Below are positions 33,381 to 60,823 of a stretch of DNA of 64,000 nt, piece by piece. The notes below the pieces were generated by a model. That model saw only the letters and a program-made list of their open reading frames with translations. It ran no database searches and was not told the DNA's origin. The DNA comes from a virus. Its lineage: Duplodnaviria; Heunggongvirae; Uroviricota; Caudoviricetes. A program made the translations under genes and the position numbers. The first letter of the stretch is position 1. Every line of letters starts with the position of its first letter. Location of the stretch: the IMG/VR virus record IMGVR_UViG_3300021963_008171, positions 10,995 to 74,994 of that record; one strand, given 5' to 3'.

Positions 33381-33407
33381 TACATATCTATCCTAATGGT
33401 TTGGATA

Positions 33408-33989: not shown

Positions 33990-33992
33990 CTG

Positions 33993-38825: not shown

Positions 38826-38835
38826 ATATTGTTTT

Positions 38836-40633: not shown

Positions 40634-40653
40634 ATATTATATGTGTATAAAAA

Positions 40654-41031: not shown

Positions 41032-41465
41032 ATAGATTCTAGACCCAAAATACTGATAAGTTCCTCGAACGATTCATTCAGATCATCACCATTTACAAAT
41101 GCCTTATAATTATCAACGGGCAGCTCAAATGCTTGTACATGGAGTTTATCCTTTCCTGAGAAATGCGGCCTATTAAACAGTATCTCAGTGACCTCGTTAT
41201 TCGCTTTTAAATCCTCCCTAATTGCACGATAAGGACAAACCATACTTATCACTACATCATATCCTTTTTGGCTCATAAAACGAGCTATTGTAAAGGATCT
41301 TTCTATGTTTCTAATTCTCCCCGAATATGAATAATCAGTATTTGGAAATATCTCTCTTAAATCGTCGCCGTCTATCCAAATTGTTTTTTCGCCCAATCTT
41401 TCTACGAGCATACTAGACATTTGGGTTTTTCCTGTGCCAGGCTGCCCGATAAACAAATAAATCAT
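41028..41465 (-). CDS. cysC: adenylyl-sulfate kinase (APS kinase)
   Basis: FIGQPGTGKTQ P-loop followed by WIDGDDLR (the LDGDNxR APS-binding motif); 145 aa. Confidence 0.65.
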   Translation of the reverse strand: MIYLFIGQPGTGKTQMSSMLVERLGEKTIWIDGDDLREIFPNTDYSYSGRIRNIERSFTIARFMSQKGYDVVISMVCPYRAIREDLKANNEVTEILFNRPHFSGKDKLHVQAFELPVDNYKAFVNGDDLNESFEELISILGLESI

Positions 41466-41694: not shown

Positions 41695-42918
41695 ATGGTT
41701 TGGAATTACCAAGATACAGTGCTAGTTCATGTGGAACTTTCCAATCTTTGCAATGCTGCTTGTCCCCTTTGCCCAAGATATGTAAACAATTCGTTAAGGG
41801 TCAATCCAGAATTGGACTTGGGCAGCGTTTCTTTTGAGGATTTTAAAAAATGGTTCCCTCTAGAATTTGTACAAAAAAGTAAAGGATGGATATTCTGCGG
41901 TACTAATGGCGACCCCATGATGGCTAGAGACGTGTATGAGATATTAGAATATGTTCTCAGAAATTCGACTGCTAAGGTCCAGGTCAACACTAACGGTTCC
42001 ATAAGAGACGGGGAATTTTGGGAAAAAATAGGATCTTTATTTGCCGAGCCCTGTGAAAATAGCAGATATGTTGTTTTCTCTGTTGATGGACTGGAGGACA
42101 CGAACCACATCTACAGAAGAAACGTGAAATGGGAGAGGGTGATGGAAAATATGAGAGCCTATGCAAAATCAGGATCTACTGGTATTTGGGACTTTCTAAT
42201 ATTCAAGCACAATGAGCATCAGCTAGAGGAGGCTGAGCTTCTCTGCAAAGAAATAGGTCTAGCATTTTCTCCAAAAAGACCCTTTGGGTTTGAAACGGGA
42301 AATCCTGATGAATACCAGGACTTAATGGTTTATGACATGGAAGGAAATTTTTTATACAAGATAGAGCCGGCCAGCGAGGAGTGGAGATTAAATAGATCCA
42401 TGAATAAATTTGAGAGAGGAGAGGAAAAAATATGGATTCCGGGAAAGGGGAAAAGAACAGATGATGAAATCAAAGAAAAGTGGAATGGACTGATCGAGAG
42501 GGATCTTCCTAAATATAAATTCCCGGAAAGATTCAAAGAAAAATCAGTTAGTTGCAAATCTTGCCATCCTATCGGGAAGGAAATTTATGTTGATTGTAAG
42601 GGAAATGTTATGCCTTGCTGCTTTGTTGGAACAATGTACAACAGTGACTTTCAACACCACGAGGCATTACAGATAAAAAAACATTTATGGGACTGGGGAT
42701 TGGATAAAATAAATCTGAATAATCATTCTCTCAAAGATATACTAGATAGCAAATATCTAGATGAGGTTTTTGCCAACCGCTGGGAAGGAGCTAAGGATGA
42801 GGATAAAATGGGATATTGCTTTAACACATGCTCGGTTGATCACATGAAAGATCTTTTTGTCAGAAAGGAAAATCTACCAATTTCTTCAGAAAAATCAGGC
42901 AAAAAAAGTCTTATCTAG
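41695..42918 (+). CDS. radical SAM / SPASM-domain enzyme
   Basis: CNAACPLC (Cx3Cx2C) near the N-terminus; C-terminal Cys cluster CKSCHP...CKGNVMPCC. Confidence 0.65.
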   Translation: MVWNYQDTVLVHVELSNLCNAACPLCPRYVNNSLRVNPELDLGSVSFEDFKKWFPLEFVQKSKGWIFCGTNGDPMMARDVYEILEYVLRNSTAKVQVNTNGSIRDGEFWEKIGSLFAEPCENSRYVVFSVDGLEDTNHIYRRNVKWERVMENMRAYAKSGSTGIWDFLIFKHNEHQLEEAELLCKEIGLAFSPKRPFGFETGNPDEYQDLMVYDMEGNFLYKIEPASEEWRLNRSMNKFERGEEKIWIPGKGKRTDDEIKEKWNGLIERDLPKYKFPERFKEKSVSCKSCHPIGKEIYVDCKGNVMPCCFVGTMYNSDFQHHEALQIKKHLWDWGLDKINLNNHSLKDILDSKYLDEVFANRWEGAKDEDKMGYCFNTCSVDHMKDLFVRKENLPISSEKSGKKSLI

Positions 42919-42933
42919 GGACATTTTTTGGGC

Positions 42934-42943
42934 GATATATAAA
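42934..42943 (+). promoter_or_regulatory. GATATATAAA motif 2 nt before the ATG at 42946
   Basis: See motif family. Confidence 0.4.
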
Positions 42944-42945
42944 AT

Positions 42946-45441
42946 ATGAACGATAAGATAAATTTAGTCTATGACGATTGGCCTCTTGATCAGGAAAGGC
43001 CGAATCCCAATGGAGATAAATATTTTCCAGAAGCAAATGCCTGGATGACTGGTGATGGTCCGATGGAGACTCTTCGATACTGCAATTACGTCAACCGAAG
43101 AATGGAAGATGTCGACAAGTACCAGGAGGAAAATTTCTTTTATGTTGTTTGGCATCGACATTCTCTCTATGACAGATTTTTGTATTTTGACAGACTTCCA
43201 ATAGGTGATGATATGATAGGGGCTTTCCAAAGAAAGCCAAATCTTTATCTTCTTTTAATAAACGATCAAGAGATAGAGCCTATAGAAACTATAAGCAAAC
43301 TTGATCTCGCTCTAGAAAGAAATAATATAGATCCAAGAAAGGTTTTTGTAGTTAACAACAATTCTAGAAATTGGGAATATAAAAAAGAATTGGGGAGTAA
43401 TATTAATGTTCATAGTACGAGGGCAATGCCTCTAGCATTGGCTAAAATTCCCAGAAGTAATTTCGTAGAGAATAAAGAAGGGCATTTTTTCATGTCACAC
43501 AACCATTCTTTAAGAGAAAGCAGATCCGCGTTTGTGTGTCTCTTAAAAAAATATGGACTGATCGATGATTTTGATTGGTCTTATTTGAAGCTCTGGAGAC
43601 TACCTGGTGAGGATTGGATAACTATCTATAGAAGAATATTCAACGATTCCGATATGGAATTCATGATGCCAGAAATAGAATATTTTAATTCTTATGGTAT
43701 TAAGAAAAGCAATTACGAGTCACATTTTCCGTGGCTTGATGAAATGACAACTAATAGTCCTTCTTGGTGGGAAACATTTAATTCACAGCAGTACGAGAAT
43801 ACCTATTTTAATGTAACTGTGGAAACACAATATTTTGGAAGGGACCTTCACATAACAGAAAAGTCATTTAAACCCTTTATCCATCTGCAGTTTCCTATGA
43901 TTCTTGCCTCCAGACATCATATAAAACATATGCGGGAGTATTACGGGTATGATTTTTTCGATGATGTGATTAACCACGATTATGATAACGTCGTAAGTGA
44001 TAGAGATAGAATCTTTAGGTTCATAGAAGAACTAAAAAGAATTCAGGAGAATAAAGAATTCTTTATCGATTTTTATAAAAATAACAAGGAAAGATTTCGG
44101 AGGAATCAAGAAATGGTTTATCAATTCACCAATGAATATGATGCTAGCTATTTCAGGGCATTGACAAAATTTGATCACCCAAAGAAAACCCTTAATCTTG
44201 TTTATGATAATTGGGATACCCAAACTAATCGCCCATTAAGAGGCAATTCTGAAGATCTTTACCTAAGTACATTCCACATGAATGTTGACAGTGTAGTTGG
44301 ATCCTTACAATTTGATAGAAGATTAATCAGAAGATATAGATTGGAAGATGTTCCTAAGATAAAAAATGAGACATTCTTTTATTTTGTCACCTTAATTCCT
44401 GGCATCCTAGCGGAGAATTTAAGATCTGGAAAACTACCAATAAATAGAGATGCTATCAACATGCTCAAGAATTATTCAAACTTTAATGTGATAATAATGA
44501 ATGAGCAGGAAGCAGAAAGAAAAGAAACACTGGTTCTTCTTGATAAATGGTCCAAAGAATCCGGCTTAAATCAGCAACAAATTTGGTTTTCTAATAACAA
44601 CCCAAGACTACAAGAATTCAAAGAGGAAATAGGAACTGATATAAATGTTCATTCGACAGTTAGACTTGCTAATTTCACAGCAAATTCTGTTATACATTCA
44701 GTGGGAAGGGTGGAGTTCAAGTCTGAGAAAGACGGGGAATTTTTCATGTGTCACAATAGAAGGCCAAGACCGCATAGATATGGTTTACTATGCTTGCTTA
44801 AAAAGAGCGGGGTTTTAGATGATGTTGATTGGTCTTTAGTTCAAGGGTTTCAGTTCAAGGGAAATAAGCACCCTGAATCCTTCTTTAGAACAATATTTAA
44901 CGATGAAGATATAGAAAACATGAGAGAAGAAATTGAGTACTTCTCTAACATAGAACAAAAGAAAAGTAGATACGAGGAAGAAAGAACATGGTTCGATGAT
45001 AGGGAAAATGAAAATAATGTTCCTTGGAATGAAACCTATGATAAAAATCAGTTGGAAAATTCATATTTCAATATCACAACAGAAACTGAATTTTCATCAG
45101 ATCTGACACACATATCAGAAAAATCTTTCAAAGCTTTCTGTGCAATGCAGTTTCCCATGATTCTTGCATCTGCTCACCACATCAGAGAAATTAAAAAGAA
45201 ATATGATTTTGATTTTTTTGATGATGTGATCAATCACGATTATGACGACGAAGAGAATCACAGAGACAGACTTTTTAAATTTGTAAAAGAGATAAAAAGA
45301 ATAAACGACAACAAGGAGTTCTTCATAGAATTTTATAAGAACAACAAATTTAGATTCGAGGAAAATCTTAGAAAAATAGAGGAGAAAGTAAAGGATCAAT
45401 CAGATTCTGACTTTTTAAAAAGAATATCTGGTATAATATGA
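42946..45441 (+). CDS. internally duplicated protein (two ~400-aa homologous halves), possible glycosyltransferase
   Basis: FPMILASRHHIKHMREYYGYDFFDDVINHDYDN (half 1) versus FPMILASAHHIREIKKKYDFDFFDDVINHDYDD (half 2). Also KINLVYDDWPLDQERPN versus LNLVYDNWDTQTNRPL. Confidence 0.55.
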   Translation: MNDKINLVYDDWPLDQERPNPNGDKYFPEANAWMTGDGPMETLRYCNYVNRRMEDVDKYQEENFFYVVWHRHSLYDRFLYFDRLPIGDDMIGAFQRKPNLYLLLINDQEIEPIETISKLDLALERNNIDPRKVFVVNNNSRNWEYKKELGSNINVHSTRAMPLALAKIPRSNFVENKEGHFFMSHNHSLRESRSAFVCLLKKYGLIDDFDWSYLKLWRLPGEDWITIYRRIFNDSDMEFMMPEIEYFNSYGIKKSNYESHFPWLDEMTTNSPSWWETFNSQQYENTYFNVTVETQYFGRDLHITEKSFKPFIHLQFPMILASRHHIKHMREYYGYDFFDDVINHDYDNVVSDRDRIFRFIEELKRIQENKEFFIDFYKNNKERFRRNQEMVYQFTNEYDASYFRALTKFDHPKKTLNLVYDNWDTQTNRPLRGNSEDLYLSTFHMNVDSVVGSLQFDRRLIRRYRLEDVPKIKNETFFYFVTLIPGILAENLRSGKLPINRDAINMLKNYSNFNVIIMNEQEAERKETLVLLDKWSKESGLNQQQIWFSNNNPRLQEFKEEIGTDINVHSTVRLANFTANSVIHSVGRVEFKSEKDGEFFMCHNRRPRPHRYGLLCLLKKSGVLDDVDWSLVQGFQFKGNKHPESFFRTIFNDEDIENMREEIEYFSNIEQKKSRYEEERTWFDDRENENNVPWNETYDKNQLENSYFNITTETEFSSDLTHISEKSFKAFCAMQFPMILASAHHIREIKKKYDFDFFDDVINHDYDDEENHRDRLFKFVKEIKRINDNKEFFIEFYKNNKFRFEENLRKIEEKVKDQSDSDFLKRISGII

Positions 45442-47105
45442 AAAAGGTACTAATTACAGGATGCAATGGTTTAGTTGGAAGCTATCTAAGAGATCTTTGT
45501 TTAGATAATGGATGGAAAGTTACTGGTGTAGATAGAAACGCAACAAAGAGAATTACCAGAGATTTTAATTACAAATTTAAAAAACTAGACTTATTAATAG
45601 AACAAAATATAATAGATCTTTTTAAAGATGAAAAATATGATGTAGTATTTAATTGTTTTGGAATTAAAGGATCTCCAGTAAGGGCAAAAAATAATCCTGT
45701 TGATTTTCTGTACCCGTCTTTTAAAATAAACACTGAGATAATAAATCAATGTTATTTAAACGACACGTGGTTGGTTTTTGTTAGCTCTGTTGGTGTTTAT
45801 AGCCCAGCAGAAAAATTCTCAGAAGATGATGTTTGGAAAACACTACCATCAGAATCCGATTGGTTTCCGTCTTGGTCTAAAAGAATGGGAGAATTGCTAT
45901 TGGAATCATATCGGGTTCAATATGGATACAACAAATGGACGATAGTAAGACCAGCAAATATATTTGGTGAATACGACGACTTTAGTGGTAGTGGAACATT
46001 GATATCAACCATGGTAAAAAAGGTCTACGAATCTTCTGGAGAGATTGAAGCATGGGGAGACGGCACACCTATCAGGGATTTTGTTTACGGAAAAGACGTT
46101 GCTTTGTCTTTAATAAAACTTTATGAAGAAGAAATAAACGATATAGTTAATTGCGGGTCAGGAATAGAGGTATCAATAAAAGATGTTGTTGAAGAAATTA
46201 TAAAAGCAAGCGGGAAGGAAATCTCAGTAAAATGGGATTCTTCTAAACCTAATGGAGATCTTAGAAGACTAATGGATACCACAAGACAGGAAATTCACGG
46301 GATAATGCCAAAAACCAATTTTTCCGATGCTATACTTAATGTTTATAAATATTACTCAGGTCTTTTCGAAGAGGAGTTACCAGTAATATCTAAAGACGAT
46401 TTGCTCGTCGAAGGTGCATATGTTGGAAAAATATCTGATTTCCTAGAGGAGGATGAATTAGAGCTTTTCAAAGAAATGATAGAGGATGTTAAAGAGTACT
46501 CCTCCGAAGATATTGAAAATAGACTTTCGTGCAAATATAATTATGACGATATAGTAAATGAATATGACCATAATATTCCACCCAGTAAAGTTGCGGAGAG
46601 AGATGCATTTATTCGAAAGAATAAATATCACGTTTGGCAAAAATGGTGGGATTTTAGGTATCCTAAAGAGTCATATTTCAGCGAGATAGCCACAAAAATA
46701 TTAAAGGATCTTTACCCACAGGCTGCCGCTGCTTTGAATGAGGCTAAGATATCAGGATCTATGGCACTTTTTGAAGATGGACATTTCATAGACATTCACA
46801 ACGATGGAGCTAATGTAGGAAGACTTTGTGTAATTATATTCTATCTCTCCGACCCTTCTGCTCATAATAACGGGGGAGGGGAATTAAGAATAATTACCAG
46901 CACAGGAAAAGAATTTATAATAGATCCAGTTTTTGATAATTTCTGCGTGATGGATTTTGCAAAGAATAACATAAAACATGAAGTAAAGATGGTTAATAAC
47001 GGATTTAAAAGATATACCTATATAAATTTTATATCACTCAAAGATGGGATTTTAGAATCAATTTTCCCGAACGAAATAAAAATAGAAAAGAAAAAAATAA
47101 TATGA
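45438..47105 (+). CDS. NAD-dependent epimerase/reductase (GDP-fucose-synthase-like) fused to a C-terminal 2OG-Fe(II) oxygenase domain
   Basis: Rossmann motif LITGCNGLVGS at the N-terminus; ...IDIHNDGAN...GGGELRI...IKHEV at the C-terminus. Confidence 0.6.
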   Translation: MKKVLITGCNGLVGSYLRDLCLDNGWKVTGVDRNATKRITRDFNYKFKKLDLLIEQNIIDLFKDEKYDVVFNCFGIKGSPVRAKNNPVDFLYPSFKINTEIINQCYLNDTWLVFVSSVGVYSPAEKFSEDDVWKTLPSESDWFPSWSKRMGELLLESYRVQYGYNKWTIVRPANIFGEYDDFSGSGTLISTMVKKVYESSGEIEAWGDGTPIRDFVYGKDVALSLIKLYEEEINDIVNCGSGIEVSIKDVVEEIIKASGKEISVKWDSSKPNGDLRRLMDTTRQEIHGIMPKTNFSDAILNVYKYYSGLFEEELPVISKDDLLVEGAYVGKISDFLEEDELELFKEMIEDVKEYSSEDIENRLSCKYNYDDIVNEYDHNIPPSKVAERDAFIRKNKYHVWQKWWDFRYPKESYFSEIATKILKDLYPQAAAALNEAKISGSMALFEDGHFIDIHNDGANVGRLCVIIFYLSDPSAHNNGGGELRIITSTGKEFIIDPVFDNFCVMDFAKNNIKHEVKMVNNGFKRYTYINFISLKDGILESIFPNEIKIEKKKII

Positions 47106-48076
47106 TAAACAAGAATTCAAGAATTTTAATTACCGGTGGATCTGGATTGGTTGGACAAAATTTAACTGAAAGACTAGTCAGAGAGGGATATACAGATTTA
47201 AGAGTAAATCTTCATAGAAGAGGAGTTAGAAAGGTTCATGACGGTGTTAATTACACATATCATGATCTACAAACATACGAAGGGTGTAAAATCGCAACAG
47301 TGGACGTTGATGTTGTTTTTCATGCCGCTGCTTCAACCTCAAATGCAGTTGATACTGTAGTAGATCCTTTAGCACACGTTACACCAAATGTTGCTATGAA
47401 TAATTTTCTTATAGATGCAGCTTGGAGGAATAATGTACAGCACTATATTTTCATTTCTTCCAATACCGTTTATCCACCAAAGGGTGATGAGCCTGTGGTA
47501 GAAACAGATTTTCTATTTGATGAACCTTATCCAGTATATTTTCCAGTTGGCTGGATGAAAAGATACGCAGAGGTTCAGTGCGAACTTTACGGAAAATATC
47601 TCCCAAGAAAGATGAAATCAACTGTGATAAGACCAGCCAATTTGTTTGGTCCTCATGATAAGTACGATTTCAATAAATGTCACGTTACCCCAGCAACAAT
47701 AAGAAAGGTAGCAGACAAAATGAACCCGATTCCTGTTTGGGGTGACGGATCGGAATTAAGGGATCTCCTTTTCGTAGAAGATTTTGTAGAAGCTCTACAG
47801 ACGGTAATGGAAAAAGAAACTGAAATGTTCGAGGTGTATAATGTTGGATCTAATAAAGTATATTCAGTTCTTGATGTTCTTGAGAAGATGAAAAAGATTG
47901 CAGACTATGATGCACCGACAGAGTTCATTAGTGGAAAGCCTTCTATGATACCAACTAGAAAAATAGATTCTAATAAAATCAAAGAAAAATTAGGATGGGA
48001 GGCAAAAACCCCCCTAGAAGATGGATTGGCTATAGCTTATAATTGGTATCTTGAGAATAATAAAGAATTCAAATAA
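47102..48076 (+). CDS. NAD-dependent sugar epimerase/dehydratase (GDP-L-fucose synthase-like)
   Basis: ILITGGSGLVGQNL; 324 aa. Confidence 0.65.
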   Translation: MINKNSRILITGGSGLVGQNLTERLVREGYTDLRVNLHRRGVRKVHDGVNYTYHDLQTYEGCKIATVDVDVVFHAAASTSNAVDTVVDPLAHVTPNVAMNNFLIDAAWRNNVQHYIFISSNTVYPPKGDEPVVETDFLFDEPYPVYFPVGWMKRYAEVQCELYGKYLPRKMKSTVIRPANLFGPHDKYDFNKCHVTPATIRKVADKMNPIPVWGDGSELRDLLFVEDFVEALQTVMEKETEMFEVYNVGSNKVYSVLDVLEKMKKIADYDAPTEFISGKPSMIPTRKIDSNKIKEKLGWEAKTPLEDGLAIAYNWYLENNKEFK

Positions 48077-48983
48077 TATGAAGGGATTGATTTTTGCTGG
48101 TTGTTCTTTTACCTGGGGTCAGGGATTATATTACTATTCGGGATTGAATACTTTAGTCGAGCCTGAACCAGATTGTTATGATGCTAGTCTTATCACAGAT
48201 GCCCATAAAAGATATATGGAAACACTGAGATATCCCAGGATAGTTGCAAATCATTTCAACACGTTTGAGTTGGTGTCTAAGCAAAATGGAGGATCTGAAG
48301 AAAGTTCGATTGATTTTATTAATTCAGCATTTGGAATTGGGGAAAAATTTGGATTTTTAACAGATCAGGAATTTTCTTTTAGCGAAATAGAATATGTTAT
48401 AATACAAACATCCCAACCGAATAGAAATGGATTTTACTTCCAATACGAGGGAGAGGAACATAAATTCTTGATTCACGAAAAATCATCAAAAGGTAAATTT
48501 TACGAATGGCTTATAGAAGAAAGAAAATTAACTATCGATGAGTGGTTTGAAGAGCACAAGGAAACATACATTGAGAAAATAAAAAGATTGATGAAGTTCC
48601 TTGAATCCAATGGAATTAAAACGAAAATACTCTGCTGGGAGAACGATTATTTAAATCTAATCAGATCTGATATTTTTATGTACAACAGATTTATCCCGTT
48701 GGAATACAGAGGGGATCAATTTTCGTCCATAAGAGATTTAATGTCCAAACACTCGCATCTTACCATAAATTCAGATTATGATAACTTTCAGGATCCTCCG
48801 AAGGATCACCATCCATCTAAAGAATGTCACCAGGTTCTAGCAGAATCTGTTATAAAATCTATAGAAAGTGATCTGAAGAATTTAAGCGAAACCCATATTT
48901 TTGATGATCACAGGGAGTTTATGAAAACTCTTCCTTGTCCAGCAAAAGAGCCAATTATAAAAAAGGCTAAAACCCTTATATAG
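48051..48983 (+). CDS. SGNH-like hydrolase homolog (GCS variant of the GDS block)
   Basis: LIFAGCSFTWGQG parallels FGDSFTWGHG of the 34495 gene. Confidence 0.4.
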   Translation: MRIIKNSNNMKGLIFAGCSFTWGQGLYYYSGLNTLVEPEPDCYDASLITDAHKRYMETLRYPRIVANHFNTFELVSKQNGGSEESSIDFINSAFGIGEKFGFLTDQEFSFSEIEYVIIQTSQPNRNGFYFQYEGEEHKFLIHEKSSKGKFYEWLIEERKLTIDEWFEEHKETYIEKIKRLMKFLESNGIKTKILCWENDYLNLIRSDIFMYNRFIPLEYRGDQFSSIRDLMSKHSHLTINSDYDNFQDPPKDHHPSKECHQVLAESVIKSIESDLKNLSETHIFDDHREFMKTLPCPAKEPIIKKAKTLI

Positions 48984-50421
48984 GTTTTTCTGGTGGATAT
49001 GGATAAGTACCTGTTTCGAAGTGCGTTATTCTTCCATCGTTAAGATTAACTACTGGAATGGATTGATCAACTTTTATAGCCCCATACCATTCAGCTAATT
49101 CTGGAAAAGTCTCTTTGAAGTTCTTACCCCTTCTACTATCATATTGTACATAGAAGCTTTTGAAATCATGGTGTAGTATCGATTTATCGTCTTCTGTTGT
49201 ATTGTGCCCTTTCTCTACAACCTGTATGTAATCCAATAATCTTTGAACCTGAGCAAATTCTCCAACACTGAATAAATTGGGTGTCATTTTTTCGTTGAAC
49301 CATTTACTCAATTTTGCATGAAGCTCAGCTTTGATTTCATCAGGAAGAACTAATGGTGACATAAATGCCGGCCATCTTAGAATATTAAGATCAACGTTTG
49401 GTTTATTTGCACCATATTTCTTTTTTAGTTCTATCATATCATCCAAGAAATCAGTGATGCTAAATAGACATAAACTGTTGATTGTCATCATTATGGTTAA
49501 AGATCTTAATTTAGCTCTTTCGATTAAGCTAACAAGATTGCTTCTCCATGTTTCGTAAACTAATCCGTCTCTAATATATTCTGCATGTCTTCCATAGGAT
49601 TCGTTGCTAGTATAGATGTCCATTTCTTTAATGTCCATCGTGTGTGACATTGCTATCATCTTCTCTAATGTTTGTTCTGTCATTCCGAGATTTGAATTAA
49701 CAGCAAGTCTTAGATTAGGAGAAGGGTTGGATTTTAATATGTCTATGAAATCCCAAAAATTGTGGCTCAAAGAAGGCTCTCCCCCTGTAATTCTGATCTC
49801 CTCTAATGTTTGAGATAACTCTGGCCACCATTCGAAAAAAGCCTGTACGAATGGATTCCTTTCGTTATACTTTCCAAATATTTCTGACCAAGAACCGTCA
49901 CTTCGGTATGCACCCGCTGAATCTGTTCTCATCTTTTGATATGGACCAAATTGCTGAATTTCCTTTCCCCACGTGGTACTGTATCCTGCATTACAATAGC
50001 TACACGCAAAATTACAAGTTCTATCAAAGCTTATTTCTAATGTCTTTAAAAGAATATCATCTCTGTAATCGGTCTCTTCTATTTTAGCTATGTCTTCCTC
50101 GTTATAGATGATGCTTTTGTAAACCCTGTCAGATACATTGTTTCTCCCTATGTCCTCTATTTTCCAGCAATAAGAGCATTCTGCAGGTCTAATGCCACTA
50201 AGCATCATTTTTCGCATTTGCTTTTTATGCCTTGTGTTGTGAATTGCAGAAGGATTTGTTTTTATTTCTTCCAAGTCTATAGGATGCGGAAGGGGTAAAT
50301 GGCAGGATCCGGTGTATCCATGTCCAAGATGTATACTTGCATTGTACCATTTCGCTGCACAAAAGCTTTTGCTTATCTTATTAAGGTTTTTTTCTCTCCA
50401 GTCTATCAGTTCTTTTGACAT
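48976..50421 (-). CDS. radical SAM/SPASM enzyme with N-terminal Cys/His-rich extension
   Basis: CNFACSYC (Cx3Cx2C) and a GGEPSL glycine-rich motif. N-terminal CAAKW...HLGHGYTGSCHLPLPHP. Paralog of 50989..52383. Confidence 0.65.
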   Translation of the reverse strand: MSKELIDWREKNLNKISKSFCAAKWYNASIHLGHGYTGSCHLPLPHPIDLEEIKTNPSAIHNTRHKKQMRKMMLSGIRPAECSYCWKIEDIGRNNVSDRVYKSIIYNEEDIAKIEETDYRDDILLKTLEISFDRTCNFACSYCNAGYSTTWGKEIQQFGPYQKMRTDSAGAYRSDGSWSEIFGKYNERNPFVQAFFEWWPELSQTLEEIRITGGEPSLSHNFWDFIDILKSNPSPNLRLAVNSNLGMTEQTLEKMIAMSHTMDIKEMDIYTSNESYGRHAEYIRDGLVYETWRSNLVSLIERAKLRSLTIMMTINSLCLFSITDFLDDMIELKKKYGANKPNVDLNILRWPAFMSPLVLPDEIKAELHAKLSKWFNEKMTPNLFSVGEFAQVQRLLDYIQVVEKGHNTTEDDKSILHHDFKSFYVQYDSRRGKNFKETFPELAEWYGAIKVDQSIPVVNLNDGRITHFETGTYPYPPEKPI

Positions 50422-50429
50422 AGTCTAAA

Positions 50430-51011
50430 TTATATTTGGTGTAGAAAATTGCAGTTATCTGTTAGATCGTAGCTTTTTCCGTGGATGAATTCTTCGAATA
50501 CATGCTTACTTATAGTTTCTTCGTCTCTTATTATTTCCAGTTCATGAAGAATTACCTCAAGATAATTGAGATTAAATTCATTTTTCGGGAAATTCCCAGC
50601 TCCAAATATTATATGTGAATTTGTGTCTGCTGCTAATTTGTCGTTTATAAAATAAAGGGTTAATGCATTTCCGTCTATATAAACAGTTATTACACCATTT
50701 CCTTTTGTTACCAACAATTCATATTTTCTGTTTGGCTCCCATTCAAAGTTACAAGAAAGATATTCAGTTTTTCCTTTACCGTCAGTAACAATTAATAGCA
50801 TGCCATATTCCTCCAGATCTATTCCAAGGTAGCTGGGAAGTTTAGCAAATAGAGTTGATTTTCTAGTTATTTCTTTCTCTAGTTCAAAGACTAGCTTAAA
50901 ACTAAAATCCCCTTCATAATCAAATATGTGATTTGCTGGATCTTTTATGAATTTTTGTCCTAATATATTAGGCCACATTATCCAGGGTTCACCCTCTTTT
51001 ATTTTTAACAT
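50430..51011 (-). CDS. ConA-like lectin / LamG-like jelly-roll protein (tentative)
   Basis: 193-aa ORF between the two radical-SAM paralogs with a beta-sandwich-like pattern; weak. Confidence 0.35.
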   Translation of the reverse strand: MLKIKEGEPWIMWPNILGQKFIKDPANHIFDYEGDFSFKLVFELEKEITRKSTLFAKLPSYLGIDLEEYGMLLIVTDGKGKTEYLSCNFEWEPNRKYELLVTKGNGVITVYIDGNALTLYFINDKLAADTNSHIIFGAGNFPKNEFNLNYLEVILHELEIIRDEETISKHVFEEFIHGKSYDLTDNCNFLHQI

Positions 51012-52383
51012 CTTCGTAGAATTTTTTTAGTTCAGGAAAGGTTTTTATAAAATCTGTACCTCTTCTTTTATCGTGTTCATCAACAAACAATACAAAATCT
51101 TTTCTATTTTTTTCAACGTCGAATCCATCCTCTGATATAGCATAGTCATAGATTCTTTTTATCTTTTGAATCTCAACATCGGAAAATCCATAATTATCGT
51201 GTGTGAATTCAGGTGTTGCGTAATAGAATGCTTTTTGAGCAGCTTTGAATATGAGCTCTTTGTGTTCGTCGTTAAGTATTTTAACCGACTGATGCTCTGG
51301 CCATCTTAGATAGGATGTATCTAGCTGTATGGCAGATATCCAATACCTTTCTTTGTTTTGGTATTTCTTTTTTAGCTGGAATATCTTTTCTATTAACTTA
51401 GAATACCCAAACACCGACATTGCGTTAAACGTTGCCATAACGTTCACTGTGACCTTCGGAAGTTCGGTTAGGATAGTTTCTACATTTTCGAAGAAGTGGT
51501 CAAAATTGAGCCCGAAACGGATGTATTCGGCTTGTTCTTTCCATGCTTCACACGAGGTAAATACTATTAGCTCGTTTACCCTGTTTTCCTCAATTATTTT
51601 TTTACACAATTTCACAAATTTTTCTACCAGATTTTTAGGAACACCAAGATTGGTATTGATTGAAAGATTTAATTTTCTATTAGGTTCCTCGGTTTCTGCT
51701 ATGAATTCTAATAACTTCCACGTGTCTTTTGAAAGAAGTGGTTCACCACCAGTTATTCTAAATGTGTGTAAGTCGTTGTAAAGATCTGGCCACCATTCCC
51801 AAAATGCTTCAACGTATGGATTTTCTTCTGAATGCTTGTATGGTATTTGTCCGGTTTCCCTGGGCCATTTAAGATCATTAAAATTTGTTGATGTTGGATA
51901 TCCCCCATGATTTTCTATTTCTTCCATCCATTTGGAAGAAAACATAGGGCTACAATAGGAGCATTTGAAATTACACGTGTTTGAAAAATTAACCTCAACA
52001 TATTTTGGATTGTAATCTGAGCTCCATCTTAGATTTTTAATTTCGTCCATGTGTGGAAATGACCATGGCTCTGAGCTTTTGAAAACCCTATCAGAAAAAG
52101 ATTCTGAACTATCTTCCACCTTCCAACAATAATTACATTCCTCGGGTCTTTGCCCATTTAACATTTCCCTTCTCACCTTCTTTTTGTGCTTGGTGTTGTG
52201 AAGAGCCGATGGATTATTTTCCAGTTCGCTCAAAGGAATTTTATGTGGAATCGGGTGATGACATGAATGCGTCATTCCATTATGAAGATGCATAGTAACT
52301 TGTGTCCACTTAGCGAGACACATCCCACATCCAGTTGAATTTAATTCTTTTCTTGTTTCCTCAAAAATTCTTTGATCGCTCAT
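50989..52383 (-). CDS. radical SAM/SPASM enzyme (paralog)
   Basis: CNFKCSYC and GGEPLL; N-terminal CGMCLAKW...HLHNGMTHSCHHPIPH. Confidence 0.65.
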   Translation of the reverse strand: MSDQRIFEETRKELNSTGCGMCLAKWTQVTMHLHNGMTHSCHHPIPHKIPLSELENNPSALHNTKHKKKVRREMLNGQRPEECNYCWKVEDSSESFSDRVFKSSEPWSFPHMDEIKNLRWSSDYNPKYVEVNFSNTCNFKCSYCSPMFSSKWMEEIENHGGYPTSTNFNDLKWPRETGQIPYKHSEENPYVEAFWEWWPDLYNDLHTFRITGGEPLLSKDTWKLLEFIAETEEPNRKLNLSINTNLGVPKNLVEKFVKLCKKIIEENRVNELIVFTSCEAWKEQAEYIRFGLNFDHFFENVETILTELPKVTVNVMATFNAMSVFGYSKLIEKIFQLKKKYQNKERYWISAIQLDTSYLRWPEHQSVKILNDEHKELIFKAAQKAFYYATPEFTHDNYGFSDVEIQKIKRIYDYAISEDGFDVEKNRKDFVLFVDEHDKRRGTDFIKTFPELKKFYEDVKNKRG

Positions 52384-53843
52384 TATGCTTTACAATTTAT
52401 TAAAAGTACGTTATTGCCAAGATCCTTCGCCGTGATTAATTCATATTGCATATTATTAATCCCGTCGCTCTTGTAATCTATGGATCTTCTTTGCATTTCT
52501 GTAACAAATCTTCTTTCGTTTCTGGCTGTTGTTTCTCCCTTAGCCCATTTATTGTTTACTAATCCTTCGTCAACATGTGGCATGCATTCAAAATCTCCTT
52601 CTCTTCTAAATGGTATTGGCATATCAGTAACCGAAAAATCCTTCTTCTCAAATTCCACATTTTTATGATCTGCTCTTACTCCTTTTATTAAATCTGGTAT
52701 TTTTTCTGCTGATATATTTTCAAAATCATAATGCAAGACAGGATCTATTTTCTTTGAATGAAAATCCGATATTTGACTAGCATTATCTACGAATTTATCA
52801 AATATAAGTAATTCTGCTATCTCTCCCCTGAAATTTATAGGATTTCCTTTATCTGCATTGGTTCCTAAATACATCGGACTTTTATCTTCGTAATTGAACA
52901 TACCTCCAAATATGTAAGTGGATTTTTCCTCCTTGATGCCCTTTTCGTTAGATTTTCCAAGCTCGTCATTAAGAAAAAAGTTAAATCTGGACTCAGATTC
53001 TTTATACGAAGTTGTCACCCATGTCCATTCTTCGTCACTTCTTTTGAGCCAATTGTAAAACATAGTTTTGTCCTGGTTGTAAACCATGCTTGTTACTGCT
53101 CTTGAATTATTGAAAGAGATTGAATATGGACAATAGCTTTGCTTTCTAAAAACTGGAAATTCTATAAATTGTTTATCTTCCTCCCCTATTAACCATTCGT
53201 TATACTTTTCATTCTGTTGCTGAGCCCGGAATAAAACCGCTATGGTGTGATCTTTGGTTAACAGGTGATTCATTTCTTTTTTGTGAGGAATCTTTATCCA
53301 TGAATCCTCCCCATTAAAAATTGCAACATTCTTCTGATCGTACTTTTTATACACCCTGCAGTTAGAGTATCCCTCGAAATGAGCACGGAAAAAAAGATCA
53401 TCGTCTTCCATTCCCCAATCCCAATAGTTATTAGAATATCCATTTGTTCTCTCCACCTGCTCCTTGGTAAAAAGAACCACCCCGCCAAAGTATTGTTCGT
53501 AATTTAATTTGTAATCATACTTTGATAGTTTGGTTGCTATATGAACAGGATTTTCTCCTGGGTAGGAATAATCACAGTCTTCTGACACTGGTATCATATC
53601 AATATCGTGCCATGCTATGTAATCACATCCGTCATCAAAAGCAAACTTGGCTGCAATGTTCTTCATTAAACCCCGGTTAAAGAGTTTATCGTCCATTTGA
53701 TTTGCAACATAGAATTTATGTTCTATTCCTCTCTTGTTCAGAAATTCTGTCAAGTGCGGAACTAGTTTTTGTAAATGTTCGTATCTATTTCTGTATGGGA
53801 TACAGATTCCAAGTTTATGTTTCATATGCCTACGTCTACCCAA
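52383..53843 (-). CDS. GT7 beta-1,4-galactosyltransferase-like glycosyltransferase + C-terminal ConA-like domain
   Basis: FNRGLMKNIAAKF, DIDMIPV and YWDWGMEDDD all match B4GALT motifs (FNRAKLLNVGF / DVDLIP / WGWGGEDDD). Confidence 0.7.
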   Translation of the reverse strand: MGRRRHMKHKLGICIPYRNRYEHLQKLVPHLTEFLNKRGIEHKFYVANQMDDKLFNRGLMKNIAAKFAFDDGCDYIAWHDIDMIPVSEDCDYSYPGENPVHIATKLSKYDYKLNYEQYFGGVVLFTKEQVERTNGYSNNYWDWGMEDDDLFFRAHFEGYSNCRVYKKYDQKNVAIFNGEDSWIKIPHKKEMNHLLTKDHTIAVLFRAQQQNEKYNEWLIGEEDKQFIEFPVFRKQSYCPYSISFNNSRAVTSMVYNQDKTMFYNWLKRSDEEWTWVTTSYKESESRFNFFLNDELGKSNEKGIKEEKSTYIFGGMFNYEDKSPMYLGTNADKGNPINFRGEIAELLIFDKFVDNASQISDFHSKKIDPVLHYDFENISAEKIPDLIKGVRADHKNVEFEKKDFSVTDMPIPFRREGDFECMPHVDEGLVNNKWAKGETTARNERRFVTEMQRRSIDYKSDGINNMQYELITAKDLGNNVLLINCKA

Positions 53844-55234
53844 GTTATATTCTTGTCTTTTTTTATTCCGTGTTCTGTGAATTTGATTCTGAATACACCA
53901 TCATCTTCATCTGATGATGACATACTATAATTTTTAGAAACCTCGTTGATGAACCTCAATTGATTCCATCTAGTTGCCTGATCCTTCCATTTATTTTCAA
54001 AGAATCCATTCTCACTGTGACCAAGTGCTTTGAATAATCCCTTCCTCCTTCTGGGAATTTCTAATTTTTTGTGTGATGGAATTTCCATTTCCCTGATATC
54101 ACAATTGAATATTCTAGCATGATTCCTATTTCCGGATTGATCTACCAATCGATAATTTCTGATACTTTTTGCATTGTAAAGAAGATGTAGCTCGTTAGAA
54201 ATTTTATATTTTCTAAATTTTTGATTTTTAGTTAATTCCTCTACCTCTTCTTTGGATAAACATTTCTTGACAACTGCAAATGAGTCTATCAGTCCTTTAA
54301 ACATATTAGGATCTCCTATTCTGTGTGGATTTCCTGCTCCTAGATAAAACAAATCAACATCATCATATGACCTTAAAGATTCGAATCCCTCAGATTCTCC
54401 TATTAATTCACCATCCTGATAGAATTTGATTTTCTTTTCTCCTAATGATATTGTCACACAAACTGTAGTTTGATAGTTTGTTTTAATATCGGAATTCACG
54501 TAAAAAGCTTTTTCTTCCTTATCGAATGTTACAAAATTGTATCTCTGAAAAGAATTATAAGAAACTGCAGTGTCATATCCAGGTAAGCTAAATGCTGTAA
54601 AAACGTCCGAATCCTTTGTGTGATCACACTCGATATCTTCTGGATAAAAAGAAACAAAAAATGTTAGATCCGTATCAAGATCAAAATTGTTTTTAATCTC
54701 GACGTAAGAATTAATTCCATTAAAATATAATGCTGTGAATTTCTTTTTTGAATTCTTAACAAATCCAAAATCAGTCTCACATCCGTTTCTAACGCATCTT
54801 AATAATAGATCATCGTCTTCGAATCCCCATCCCCAATATCTGTTTGAGTAACCATTTATTCTTCTAAATTCATCTGCTGGAAAAATAGTAACACCACCAA
54901 AATATTGATCGAAAGTCTTTTTTGTATTTCCAGATTCTACCTCCACTATATTTTTAGCCAAGTGAACTGGGAATGGTGAATAACTATAATCAACATCAAC
55001 AGGAAGAAGATCTATGTCATGAAATACCACATAATTACATCCAAGTCTTTTTGCGTATTTGAATCCAATATTTAAGAGCATCCCACGGTTAAATTGCTTA
55101 GCATCATCTTGGTTGATAATGATAAGCTCGAATGAGATCCTTTTCTCGTCAAGATAATTTATTAGATGTCTCTTGAATGCTAGAAGATGCTCCCATCTGT
55201 GCCGATGAGGTACTATTACTCCTAGTTTATTCAT
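53822..55234 (-). CDS. GT7 beta-1,4-galactosyltransferase-like glycosyltransferase (paralog)
   Basis: FNRGMLLNIGFKY, DIDLLPV, YWGWGFEDDD. Confidence 0.7.
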   Translation of the reverse strand: MNKLGVIVPHRHRWEHLLAFKRHLINYLDEKRISFELIIINQDDAKQFNRGMLLNIGFKYAKRLGCNYVVFHDIDLLPVDVDYSYSPFPVHLAKNIVEVESGNTKKTFDQYFGGVTIFPADEFRRINGYSNRYWGWGFEDDDLLLRCVRNGCETDFGFVKNSKKKFTALYFNGINSYVEIKNNFDLDTDLTFFVSFYPEDIECDHTKDSDVFTAFSLPGYDTAVSYNSFQRYNFVTFDKEEKAFYVNSDIKTNYQTTVCVTISLGEKKIKFYQDGELIGESEGFESLRSYDDVDLFYLGAGNPHRIGDPNMFKGLIDSFAVVKKCLSKEEVEELTKNQKFRKYKISNELHLLYNAKSIRNYRLVDQSGNRNHARIFNCDIREMEIPSHKKLEIPRRRKGLFKALGHSENGFFENKWKDQATRWNQLRFINEVSKNYSMSSSDEDDGVFRIKFTEHGIKKDKNITWVDVGI

Positions 55235-55430
55235 TCAAATTATCGTTTTCTTCTACGAATTTAGTGTGGAATTCAGACAGATAGAATTGGATTCGGTTGC
55301 TCCATTCGTTTTTGTCTATCTCCTCTACCCAAGCTGTTAGGTCTTCCATACAGTTTGCAATCTTTTCTAATGCTTTAACCTTTCTGATTTCCAGGTCTTG
55401 TGGATTTTCTGTTTTTTTAGATACTGACAT
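55227..55430 (-). CDS. hypothetical small protein
   Basis: 67-aa ORF coupled to its neighbours. Confidence 0.35.
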   Translation of the reverse strand: MSVSKKTENPQDLEIRKVKALEKIANCMEDLTAWVEEIDKNEWSNRIQFYLSEFHTKFVEENDNLNE

Positions 55431-55441
55431 GATTTCTGTTT

Positions 55442-56287
55442 TTATATGGATGTGATAATTTTTATTAATTTTTTCCAGGAAGTGTATCCATCATAGCTGT
55501 TTACATTCTGCTCGAACATAAATGAAGGATCGCTTACGTCTAGTTTATTCTCTATTATAGCATCATACATCTTTTTATATTCGGATGAAAATGCATATTG
55601 TGAATTTACGTCCGCCACAGCCTTGATCCTTTCTAGACACGTTGAATCCCATTTGAAGTGATGAACTTGGACCGAGTATTTTTCAACTGGAGCAATTAAT
55701 GGATGATTCCACCCCTGCCATTTCCATGTTGTATAGCCATCTATCTTTGCATAGTGCTGGCCAGAAGTTATTTGAACGTGCCCCTTTACCAAACAAACTT
55801 TATTTGGGCAGGCATTACTTAGTGGATATCTAAAAAACCCAGCAAGTGGAAATTGAGAAAATATGTCTTTTCCTGATCTTATTCTGGGGAATTCACCATC
55901 TTCTCCTAATCTATCAACAAATCCACCTCTAACCAAATCCCACCCATTTTTTTCGCAGTCGTCTGCTATTCTTCTTGGATGATCGTTGTAAAGATGAAAT
56001 TCATCAATATCAGCAACCATCCACCAATCGTTAGGATGCTCATATTTACAAGAATTATAAATTGTGGTTACCTCTTCCCAGTCAAAACCCCTACTTTTTC
56101 TGGATCCGCAGATTTTTACATTCTTGTGATCCTTTATCTTTTCCTCTACCTGTTTTTTTAAATCTGGATAAAGATCCGATTCATAGACGTAAAACAAAAT
56201 TTCATCCACATTAAATTTACTATAATGTTGAATGAAGTGGGGTATAAGATTAACCCCGTGTCCTATTACTGATACGACTCTAAGCAT
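55442..56287 (-). CDS. putative GT-A fold glycosyltransferase (GT92/DUF23-like?)
   Basis: ...WWMVADIDEF (DxD-like); 281 aa. Confidence 0.4.
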   Translation of the reverse strand: MLRVVSVIGHGVNLIPHFIQHYSKFNVDEILFYVYESDLYPDLKKQVEEKIKDHKNVKICGSRKSRGFDWEEVTTIYNSCKYEHPNDWWMVADIDEFHLYNDHPRRIADDCEKNGWDLVRGGFVDRLGEDGEFPRIRSGKDIFSQFPLAGFFRYPLSNACPNKVCLVKGHVQITSGQHYAKIDGYTTWKWQGWNHPLIAPVEKYSVQVHHFKWDSTCLERIKAVADVNSQYAFSSEYKKMYDAIIENKLDVSDPSFMFEQNVNSYDGYTSWKKLIKIITSI

Positions 56288-57011
56288 TTTTTCTTTTTAA
56301 TATAGTTATACCGCTCGAAGCTGGTTTTTCTTTTAATCTTCCATAATTGAATAAATTAAAAATTTCCCATTCATCGTTATTAAAATCCTTTACGAATTGG
56401 GAAGGACCTGAGAAATCATGGAAATCCTTTTTCTGGTCCTCTGTTACTATATAATTTTCTGAAAAGCTTGGATCTGTGTCGTGTATAGCGATTATCCCAT
56501 TCTTTTCCATTATCGTGCTGTACATATTAAAATCCTTGGAAACCCCTTCATATGAATGATCGCCGTCTATAAATAAGAAATCTATTTTGATGTCTTGCAT
56601 TATAAAGAAATCATAGAATGCTTTCTCTGATGTTTCTTTTATAAATCTTGGGTGGAAATTAGATCTATAGAATCCAGATTCGTCCATCATATTGGATTGT
56701 CCCCCGATTCCATTGCAAGGATCTACCACGTAGGTAGCTCCGATATCTCCCCAATTGTAATCGGGATTTCCTTCGAATATTCCCGAACCGTGTAAATCTA
56801 TTCTTGCCTGTGTCATTATCCTAGGAATAAAACCTCCCCCGCTCCCAATACACACGCAATTTTTAGATCTTGTAAACTGGATAAGCGAGTATATTAATAG
56901 TCCATCGCCTAGATCAGAATCCGTTGCACCATGTGACCAGCGGAAAGGTACAGGAATTTCCCCGTCGTTTGTTATCTTTTCCCTGATATAATCTAAATTC
57001 AATACCATCAT
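56280..57011 (-). CDS. class I SAM-dependent methyltransferase (TylF/MycF-like O-methyltransferase)
   Basis: ...CVCIGSGGGFIPR Gly-rich motif and the acidic ...AIHDTD. Confidence 0.45.
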   Translation of the reverse strand: MMVLNLDYIREKITNDGEIPVPFRWSHGATDSDLGDGLLIYSLIQFTRSKNCVCIGSGGGFIPRIMTQARIDLHGSGIFEGNPDYNWGDIGATYVVDPCNGIGGQSNMMDESGFYRSNFHPRFIKETSEKAFYDFFIMQDIKIDFLFIDGDHSYEGVSKDFNMYSTIMEKNGIIAIHDTDPSFSENYIVTEDQKKDFHDFSGPSQFVKDFNNDEWEIFNLFNYGRLKEKPASSGITILKRKNA

Positions 57012-60725: not shown

Positions 60726-60737
60726 CAAATTTTATAT

Positions 60738-60812
<75 letters not shown>

Positions 60813-60823
60813 AATTTAAAATC

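Follow-up and report, generated by a model that had tools for sequence, protein, structure and literature searches.

A conserved glycosyltransferase and radical SAM operon recurs beside phage tail-fiber genes and may glycosylate collagen-like fibers

The DNA considered here (the window) is a stretch of 64,000 nucleotides from a caudoviricete record in IMG/VR, IMGVR_UViG_3300021963_008171 (positions 10,995 to 74,994), and is part of the 85.5-kb ENA metagenome contig ERZ27296343, k141_1586432. Positions 41695 to 57011 of the window encode glycosyltransferases, nucleotide-sugar enzymes, and radical S-adenosylmethionine (SAM) enzymes. This region consists of two units, a conserved eight-gene operon on the minus strand (48976 to 57011) and a lineage-specific accessory block on the plus strand (41695 to 48983), which converge and overlap by 8 bp. 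The phage is a large, uncultured one from an aquatic habitat. The operon recurs in related viral loci at a fixed position beside tail-fiber genes, and we give roughly even chances to the reading that the cassette carries out cytoplasmic O-glycosylation of the phage's own Ser/Thr-rich, collagen-like tail fibers.

A preliminary description of this DNA, made without database searches, had presented the 15 kb as one island encoding a pathway for a sulfated, methylated, glycosaminoglycan (GAG)-like product. All 12 open reading frames (ORFs) that it listed were found again at the same positions, its domain assignments mostly hold, and its general idea of a glycan-building and -tailoring gene set is supported by gene content, folds, and catalytic motifs. 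The single island did not survive comparison: only 48976 to 57011 is conserved, and the order of these core genes, for which a synteny search had been suggested, recurs in 71 to 80 of the 80 viral loci fetched. These 80 are the best of 477 loci in IMG/VR that encode relatives of GT7a, one of the two GT7-family glycosyltransferases of the operon, and gene presence was scored in them throughout. The core genes all lie on the same strand at fixed offsets; a small 67-aa protein and GT7a are present in all 80 loci, a GT-A glycosyltransferase in 79, the second GT7 enzyme (GT7b) in 76, a methyltransferase in 75, and radical SAM enzymes with an N-terminal twitch domain (rSAMtw) in 71, mostly as two copies. 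Core identity among the related phages is ~50 to 60%. Full-length GT7a homologues on contigs of metagenome-assembled genomes (MAGs) always come with the same ordered core, while genuine bacterial chromosomes carry a compact GT7 gene only.

The strongest clue to function, and one not drawn in the preliminary description, is the fixed position of the operon beside tail-fiber genes. Scoring as fiber-like any self-called ORF within 10 kb of the cassette that is 600 aa or longer and in whose product Ser, Thr, Gly, and Asn together make up at least 38% of the residues, we found such an ORF upstream on the same strand in 48 of the 60 loci with enough flank (32 of 38 once loci were dereplicated at 90% GT7a identity) and downstream in none of 64 (0 of 46 dereplicated), linking these virus-encoded transferases to structural genes. 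The fiber-like ORFs belong to 30 unrelated families; collagen-like ORFs account for 24 of the 48 found upstream, and a Peptidase_S74-type chaperone forms the end of 22. Recurrent Pfam families upstream are Collagen (five families), Peptidase_S74 (four), Laminin_G_3 (three), C1q (two), Phage_tail_APC and Caudo_TAP (tail-assembly chaperones), and BACON. Those downstream are Epimerase, RmlC, UGDH, DegT, parts of E1/thiamine pyrophosphate (TPP) enzymes, PhyH and 2-oxoglutarate (2OG) oxygenases, radical SAM, DUF6071, and DUF6734. The collagen-like stretches, taken from 24 distinct ORFs of the related loci, consist mostly of G-[TS]-S triplets and hence are about two-thirds Ser/Thr residues: in 2356 triplets, the X position is Thr in 54% and Ser in 41%, and the Y position is Ser in 86%.

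In the window itself, a collagen-like tail-fiber gene of 742 codons (62839 to 64000, plus strand) runs off the end, its product composed mainly of GAQ, GDT, and GAK triplets. A second fiber, of 1117 aa, with both (GSS/GTS)n and (GAQ/GDT/GAK)n repeats and a Peptidase_S74-like C terminus, is encoded in the continuation of the contig (L169). In that continuation (10797 to 18962), the fibers are followed, up to the contig end, by a 281-aa protein and a 572-aa one that has a PTPGPTP linker.

GT7a (53822 to 55234, minus strand) and its paralogue GT7b (52383 to 53825, minus strand; 30% identity, with the start at ATG 53825 and not at TTG 53843) both exceed the gathering cut-offs of the two Pfam halves of the family, in agreement with the preliminary assignment. 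GT7a scores 71.0 bits for Glyco_transf_7N (cut-off 27) and 66.2 for Glyco_transf_7C (cut-off 23), and GT7b scores 67.3 and 77.9, respectively. The motifs noted at first reading are invariant in a 33-sequence alignment (FNRG, HDxDxxP, and YWGWGxEDDD), including D73, D75, W134, W136, G137, E139, D140, and D142, and in GT7a they align to HDVDLLP and WGWGLEDDE of B4GALT7. The AF2 model of GT7a (pLDDT 91, pTM 0.87) retrieved B4GALT7, the best match, and B4GALT1 with Foldseek (E 2e-14, 34 to 36% identity over ~157 residues); the GT-A fold on which the assignment had been made to depend was thus recovered, the match to solved B4GALT structures extending to the C-terminal segment. The sequence profile likewise finds Drosophila B4GALT7 (E 8e-41). 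The middle part of the model matches LamG and pentraxin domains instead. Compact bacterial homologues (~260 aa) align through their C-terminal part with residues 391 to 470 of GT7a, and the LamG domain (~165 to 390) is therefore an insertion within a complete GT7 catalytic domain (~1 to 160 plus 391 to 470). The two paralogues align over their full length, from which the same architecture can be predicted for GT7b; a GT7b orthologue in a related locus (L004) has a Laminin_G_3 match. Neither protein has the type II membrane anchor of the animal enzymes, GT7 beginning at the catalytic domain with a maximum 19-residue hydropathy of 0.74.

GT7a has 2037 homologous clusters. In a library of 1.84 billion cluster representatives, it matched 5535 proteins at E≤1e-3; of the best 150 matches, only ~60 to 70 have the full GT7-LamG architecture. 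A tblastn search of 50,697 GenBank phage records gave no match. Azospirillum isolates, single-cell genomes of Pelagibacteraceae, and a freshwater LD12 genome are among the sources that encode compact GT7-like proteins (~260 aa, 36 to 46% identity). The description of these transferases as eukaryote-like is hence correct as regards the animal B4GALT motifs and fold and overstated as a label; it reflects which structures have been solved, not necessarily the origin of the genes.

The two rSAMtw genes, rSAMtw1 (50989 to 52383, minus strand) and rSAMtw2 (48976 to 50421, minus strand), the latter the last gene of the operon, encode paralogs of ~35% identity that flank a ConA-like gene, as previously described. 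Both cover model positions 1 to 398 of NCBIfam NF033640, radical SAM enzymes with an N-terminal twitch (auxiliary Fe-S) domain, with 350 (349.7) and 308 (308.4) bits, above the curated cut-off of 170. The region had been credited with three radical SAM/SPASM enzymes; three radical SAM enzymes there are, of which these two are of the N-terminal-twitch type and the third, in the accessory block, has a weak SPASM-like domain. Across 87 distinct rSAMtw sequences, seven cysteines are invariant, C22, C41, C83, and C86 as N-terminal ligands and C137, C141, and C144 as the CX3CX2C cluster; a GGEP motif is also conserved. A locus typically holds two copies (151 members in 70 loci), and rSAMtw1 has more than 7381 homologues, the top 120 at least 67% identical.

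The 193-aa protein encoded between them (50430 to 51011, minus strand) stays below threshold for the ConA-like families of Pfam (16.8 to 18.5 bits). Its ConA-like character was borne out by profile comparison, with hhalign values of 95% to the LamG insert of GT7a and 93 to 98% to positional equivalents in related loci (C10, C12, and C14). A LamG-like protein fills this slot between the radical SAM genes in ~62 loci, where it belongs to four diverged homologous families, and these rSAM-adjacent proteins align to the GT7a insert with hhalign values of 92 to 98.6%. In 17 proteins of ~914 to 940 aa, two tandem LamG-like copies are fused to rSAMtw; examples are found in L099, L119-L121, L125-L126, and L148 (~12815-15650), the partners being encoded separately in the window. 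A homologue of the N-twitch enzyme (43% identity) is also present in the Ralstonia jumbo phage RsoM2USA (L003, MG752970.1, 202357 to 233694), with a second match in the same record. The block of genes in which it is found there, all on one strand, also encodes a tail-sheath protein and an NDP-sugar epimerase/dehydratase, which lends modest support to a role in fiber modification. All genes of that block are annotated as hypothetical.

The operon begins with a class I SAM methyltransferase of 243 aa (56280 to 57011, minus strand; Methyltransf_24, 44.4 bits against a cut-off of 26.3), an orthologue of which stands at a fixed offset in related loci. The earlier call of a TylF-like O-methyltransferase holds for the methyltransferase and not for the TylF label, which is not shown by these data; its alignment profile (A5) found no significant sequence relative in the PDB. 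The next gene encodes the GT-A glycosyltransferase of 281 aa (55442 to 56287, minus strand), again as first described, with Glyco_tranf_2_4 above its cut-off (33.8 bits against 27.5). It has an invariant DxDE motif (D93, D95, and E96 in alignment A4) and invariant H209-H210, and its profile found no PDB sequence relative. Missed in the preliminary description and called in public contigs is a 67-aa acidic helical protein (55227 to 55430, minus strand) whose gene overlaps the start of GT7a. Its conserved core, LExRKVKALEKIANSLDALTxWFEEIDKDEWSxRIQYYL, is followed by a variable tail, and the helical core led us to reject the protein as a glycosylation acceptor or as the precursor of a posttranslationally modified ribosomal peptide (RiPP).

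The accessory block, all on the plus strand, opens with the third radical SAM enzyme (41695 to 42918; Radical_SAM, 41.1 bits against 29.5), whose C-terminal Cys-rich domain reaches 20.0 bits for SPASM, just under the cut-off of 21.5; no NCBIfam subfamily comes near its cut-off. It has weak matches in 2 of the 80 loci. The following 831-aa protein (42946 to 45441) is internally duplicated, as had been noted, with two modules of ~410 aa that are 40% identical over 408 aa. It matches no Pfam family at E≤0.01. The AF2 model of one module (pLDDT 85) matches PDB entries weakly (TM ~0.4), with GT-B transferases ranking highest, namely SdgB (2.7e-4), T4 BGT, OtsA, SenB, and a GT10 enzyme (1.5e-2), and we regard the protein, from its modeled structure, as a predicted GT-B glycosyltransferase outside the described families. 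Membership in GT10 was considered and rejected: Glyco_transf_10 was not found, and the GT10 enzyme FUT13 ranked only 18th (E 1.5e-2), behind other GT-B enzymes, although a TE..ISEKS motif may resemble one of that family. The tandem form occurs in 3 of the 80 loci. The module family as a whole is a frequent accessory (~41 of 80), mostly as a single-module relative (family C05, 38 of 80; hhalign 99.9%).

Two extended short-chain dehydrogenases/reductases (SDRs) resembling Fcl come next, the first fused to a prolyl 4-hydroxylase (P4H)-type 2OG-Fe(II) oxygenase (45438 to 47105; Epimerase, 132 bits; 2OG-FeII_Oxy_3, 30 bits) and the second on its own (47102 to 48076; Epimerase, 141 bits). Of the earlier annotation as GDP-sugar epimerase/reductase-like enzymes, the extended SDRs and the fusion stand. 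GDP-L-fucose synthase (Fcl/GMER, NF047922) is the best NCBIfam match of both, but their scores (124 and 147 bits) are far below its equivalog cut-off of 500. An SDR is present downstream in 20 to 21 of the 80 loci by tblastn and in 26, including the window, by clustering. The block closes with a 301-aa protein (48078 to 48983, start at ATG 48078), found by tblastn in 10 of the loci, for which the suggested SGNH-like esterase/acyltransferase nature was corroborated by an hhalign value of 96.8% (E 2.6e-10) to Pfam-positive GDSL paralogs of the window. It has no Pfam match itself and retains conserved blocks I, II, and V (GCSFTWGQG, NGGSE, and DxHPS). Other metagenomic proteins combine the GT-B module with UDP-glucose 6-dehydrogenase (UGDH; ~25 clusters), with an Fcl-like SDR, with both an SDR and a 2OG oxygenase, or with an SGNH-like domain (P0195 and P0196). 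Through such fusions, a single pathway dependent on nucleotide sugars links the module to the SDRs, the 2OG domain, and the SGNH-like protein.

Among the relatives, the stretch 5 to 11 kb downstream of GT7a also holds recurrent accessory genes that are not in the window: an RmlC-like epimerase in 17 loci, pairs resembling the alpha and beta parts of TPP-dependent E1 in 18 and 12 loci, DUF6071, a PhyH-type dioxygenase, and further radical SAM enzymes. They suggest branched or otherwise unusual sugars in some of the phages. Eight recurrent neighbor clusters (C05, C07, C08, C09, C10, C12, C14, and C22) have no Pfam match.

From these genes, we infer an acceptor, an order of steps, donor sugars, a radical SAM chemistry, and a time of expression as follows. 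The GT-A transferase, or the GT-B enzyme where present, would start a glycan on Ser/Thr of the fiber repeats, with the 742-aa and 1117-aa collagen-like fibers of this contig as the proposed acceptors. The two GT7 enzymes would extend it, by their predicted inverting beta-transfer from UDP-hexose or UDP-HexNAc; the Methyltransf_24 enzyme would methylate a sugar, and the two N-terminal-twitch enzymes would carry out radical tailoring of the glycan or the acceptor. The LamG beta-sandwich that the enzymes share may dock them on the common acceptor or the growing glycan. In the accessory block, the two Fcl-like SDRs, one with its 2OG domain, would supply a 6-deoxyhexose-type NDP-sugar, and the tandem GT-B enzyme, the SGNH-like esterase/acyltransferase, and the radical SAM/SPASM-like enzyme would add further decoration. 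A conserved core, freely replaced fibers, and variable downstream sugar genes fit an inner glycan with variable outer sugars. Taken to its full extent, the model would make the fibers of a widespread lineage of large aquatic phages proteoglycan- or mucin-like, with dense O-glycans on (Gly-Ser/Thr-Ser)n, built by LamG-docked B4GALT7-type transferases, edited by radical SAM enzymes, and decorated here with deoxy-sugar and sulfate; this extended version we consider unlikely. A variant with collagen hydroxylation preceding glycosylation, as in Mimivirus L230, found no support, with a P4H-type 2OG domain accompanying a collagen-like fiber in 0 of the 46 loci with both flanks, only 4 of which carry the domain.

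Several points weigh against fiber glycosylation. It is predicted from genes, as is the docking role of LamG. No upstream fiber-like ORF was found by our criterion in 6 of the 38 dereplicated loci, and that criterion, combining length and composition of self-called ORFs, is crude. In the window, the fiber genes start 5.8 kb from the operon, on the opposite strand and divergently, and what lies in between (Metallophos, HAD_SAK_2, Band_7, a transfer-messenger RNA [tmRNA], a tRNA, an exonuclease, and PAP2) is unrelated. Known GT7 enzymes extend sugars and do not start on protein, so that the initiator must be assumed. The T4 late-promoter motif TATAAATA was found 8 times against 10.5 expected, never upstream of the operon. 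Finally, aquatic T4-like phages gather glycosyltransferases in a plastic region that also holds the fibers (PMC7029224), and the co-location could reflect genome architecture and not function. Scans for sigma-70 promoters and terminators returned fewer sites than in shuffled sequence. Metallophos, HAD_SAK_2, and Band_7 likewise lie beside the cassette in L006-L008, where the fetched flank ended before any fiber genes.

A different reading is that the enzymes remodel the host envelope, altering the lipopolysaccharide (LPS) O-chain, the capsule, or a protein O-glycan of the host and thereby blocking superinfection or changing surface recognition. For pelagimyophages and cyanomyophages, the glycosyltransferase, epimerase, and radical SAM genes of the host-recognition islands have been interpreted in this way in print (PMC7029224, PMC12801897). 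Fcl-like SDRs, RmlC, UGDH, and DegT, the NDP-sugar genes of the accessory sets, are typical of O-antigen loci, and compact GT7-like genes are present in bacterial chromosomes. No membrane segment was detected at the hydropathy threshold used in the 13 island proteins or in 14 proteins of the left flank; nor did these include Wzx, Wzy, an initiating transferase, a Gtr-type protein (in the island), a flippase, or a transporter, by Pfam family. Such a gene set does not belong to a Wzx/Wzy- or ABC-dependent O-antigen or capsule locus. Being phage-borne, devoid of membrane proteins, and recurrent in hundreds of viral contigs, it is also not the ordinary host O-antigen locus that the preliminary description had named as the outcome to be guarded against. 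Many O-antigen glycosyltransferases are soluble, however, and the lack of membrane segments is compatible with host remodeling. Against this reading, enzymes acting on strain-specific O-units should vary with the host, whereas the core retains its identity across phages with 30 unrelated fiber families, and the fixed polarity of fibers on one side and NDP-sugar genes on the other is unexpected for a free-floating auxiliary set. With the core conserved, the fibers replaced, and the sugar genes variable, cytoplasmic fiber glycosylation is favored over strain-specific O-antigen editing, and we regard host-envelope remodeling as rather unlikely and yet as the main and a serious rival.

The sulfated, methylated GAG-like glycan of the preliminary description would draw on a cluster of genes adjoining the accessory block. 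This cluster (32745 to 41465, minus strand) encodes three small paralogs that share a sulfotransferase-like N-terminal RTGS[TR]SL loop, an APS-kinase-like protein, three GDSL-like paralogs, a P-loop kinase, a small HxGH nucleotidyltransferase-like protein, and a P4H-type 2OG oxygenase. That B4GALT7, the best structural match of GT7a, is the GAG-linker galactosyltransferase, that the fiber repeats are rich in Ser-Gly, and that relatives have the GT-B module joined to UGDH would all suit a GAG. However, no GAG polymerase or linker enzyme (GT31, GT43, GT47/64, or GT14) was found, and the sulfotransferase assignment itself is below threshold (22.4 bits against 27). The sulfotransferase-like genes are in 0 and the APS-kinase-like gene in 2 of the 80 loci, and those of the cluster other than the sulfotransferase-like ones are in 0 to 6; sulfation is thus specific to this phage and lies outside the conserved system, and a GAG-like product appears improbable.

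Glycosylation of modified bases in the phage DNA as a protection against restriction is the classical role of phage glycosyltransferases (PMC12619734), and one of the weak fold matches given by the 831-aa protein is T4 beta-glucosyltransferase. Those matches are generic to GT-B, though, and glycan acceptors are in keeping with lectin-type LamG modules, sugar-nucleotide tailoring genes, and a GT7 fold; the recurrent neighbors named by Pfam are genes for fibers and sugars and include no family of nucleotide metabolism (hydroxymethylases were not specifically searched for), so that we hold DNA hypermodification to be very improbable. Equally remote is a glycosylated ribosomal peptide or small molecule, with a radical SAM enzyme maturing a peptide such as the 67-aa product before glycosylation: the three radical SAM enzymes, one with a SPASM-like domain, and the small conserved ORF within the operon would suit it, but the 67-aa protein, a helical core with a variable tail, has no Cys/Ser/Thr-rich segment in the related-locus alignment, the rSAMtw partner is LamG-like and not a peptide-recognition element, and no protease, leader-recognition domain, or exporter was found among these proteins, all of which are soluble.

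As to the source of the window, neither the island nor 20 kb of the window had a nucleotide relative by megablast among the 50,697 GenBank phage records. In a PHROG scan of the 62 ORFs outside the island, the matches were RNA ligase and an exonuclease subunit of DNA polymerase, along with the Srd anti-sigma factor, a sigma-70 decoy, and endonucleases V and VII. These matches identify the DNA as that of a phage, and the Srd, decoy, and endonuclease matches suggest a T4-like one. A tmRNA (60314 to 60728, plus strand; Rfam RF00023, 80.4 bits against 47; not reported by ARAGORN) is directly followed by a tRNA-Met (60738 to 60812). The latter is overlapped by an ORF (60752 to 61207) whose GTG start is therefore doubtful.

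The Band_7 protein has its best matches in crAss-like and Prevotella Lak phages, and four consecutive proteins of 562, 767, 297, and 481 aa (4317 to 11669, plus strand) have Bacteroidota-style signal peptides; together these predicted features suggest a host among the Bacteroidota. To our knowledge, phage-encoded secreted or outer-membrane proteins are unusual. The four have no match in Pfam or PHROG. The C-terminal segments of the first two are similar and may be T9SS sorting domains, and tblastn of the 767-aa ORF (5998 to 8301) against phages gave a weak, partial lectin-domain match in Flavobacterium phages only. The 481-aa protein (10224 to 11669) has a long Ala/Ser-rich tract, then (ESK)n and (KKEEE)n tracts, and a beta-barrel-like end; tblastn of its ORF against the GenBank phages found no match.

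A further signal of such a host is that related contigs have been binned with Flavobacteriaceae and Flavobacteriales MAGs, though also with one Pelagibacterales MAG. Cassette-bearing contigs within MAGs (L009-L013 and L112) are assigned to Pelagibacterales, Flavobacteriaceae (a 248-kb contig), Flavobacteriales, and Anaeromicropila, and one is in an IMG/VR entry labeled a giant-virus MAG (GVMAG); these placements probably are due to misbinning. Elsewhere in the window, a CMP-sugar synthetase-like gene (21193 to 21915, plus strand; CTP_transf_3, 98.7 bits) may feed the glycan pathway. Also on the plus strand are genes for a TROVE/Ro60-like RNA-binding protein (26845 to 28470; phrog_850) and for a protein with a Fib_succ_major domain (28512 to 29192). 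Rfam at gathering thresholds revealed no family resembling Y RNA.

Virion glycosylation in tailed phages is known experimentally mainly from mycobacteriophages. Their capsids and tail tubes carry glycans (Freeman 2023, as cited in PMC12619734), and chloroviruses and mimivirus encode their own glycosylation machinery for structural proteins, including L230, which acts on viral collagen (PMC9614988). The cassette resembles these systems in bringing its own, predictedly cytoplasmic, transferases and sugar-nucleotide enzymes, which would act on structural proteins; collagen-like viral acceptors, as used by L230, and methylated sugars have precedents there. It differs from them in its GT7-LamG and N-twitch enzymes, its bacterial host, and its proposed tail-fiber acceptors. 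A further parallel is with BclA of Bacillus anthracis, whose collagen-like region bears oligosaccharides with methylated deoxy-sugars (Daubenspeck 2004, via PMC9614988), and with Ser-rich-repeat glycoproteins (SdgB, GtfA/B): Gly-X-Thr or Ser-rich repeats receive dense O-glycans while still in the cytoplasm. The fold of the GT-B module matches SdgB best, yet no relation was found at the sequence level (TM ~0.4, 9 to 10% identity), and unlike in the SdgB and GtfA/B systems there is no accessory Sec system here and the proposed acceptor is a phage fiber. The phage GT7 enzymes share the GT-A fold and catalytic motifs with animal B4GALT7 and B4GALT1 (CAZy GT7). They differ from the animal proteins in lacking a signal anchor, in being phage-encoded and predictedly cytoplasmic, and in the LamG domain of ~225 aa inserted between the EDD helix and the C-terminal segment; animal B4GALT and the compact bacterial homologues are equally close to them.

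Among phages, the nearest parallels are the islands of T4-like pelagimyophages and cyanomyophages, in which large aquatic phages likewise combine glycosyltransferase, NDP-sugar, and radical SAM cassettes with tail-fiber genes, the host O-chain reading having been put forward there without experiment (PMC7029224, PMC12801897). Moraphages, described in 2025, are large, mostly freshwater phages with predicted Flavobacteriia hosts and four core glycosyltransferase orthogroups of open role; the paper makes no mention of radical SAM enzymes (PMC12619734). Their predicted hosts agree with the Bacteroidota signals of this contig, which may belong to the moraphage lineage or a similar one. These three papers deal with variable gene sets or unnamed core glycosyltransferases, their function left open or ascribed to the host O-chain, and the eight-gene order, the GT7-LamG architecture, the N-twitch pair, and the fiber polarity are not described in them. 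What is new, then, is a defined cassette, a GT7 enzyme with an inserted LamG domain, a LamG-partnered pair of N-twitch radical SAM enzymes, an unclassified GT-B family, and a quantitative link to Ser/Thr-rich collagen-like fibers.

The cassette points to new enzymology, with a lectin-like domain inserted into GT7 and the very large, uncharacterized NF033640 radical SAM subfamily (more than 7000 homologues) tied to a LamG partner, while the fusions of the Pfam-less GT-B family point to UDP-GlcA or 6-deoxyhexose donors. It also counsels caution with the routine labeling of such phage genes as auxiliary LPS/O-antigen genes. If fiber glycosylation by the cassette is correct, self-encoded modification of this kind would be common among abundant large phages of freshwater and marine environments, with a bearing on host range, on resistance to proteases and host defenses, and on how receptor-binding proteins are read from metagenomes. 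If the fibers should moreover be proteoglycan- or mucin-like, this would add a new phage-specific pathway of protein glycosylation, a new radical SAM glycan chemistry, and a glycan layer in host recognition.

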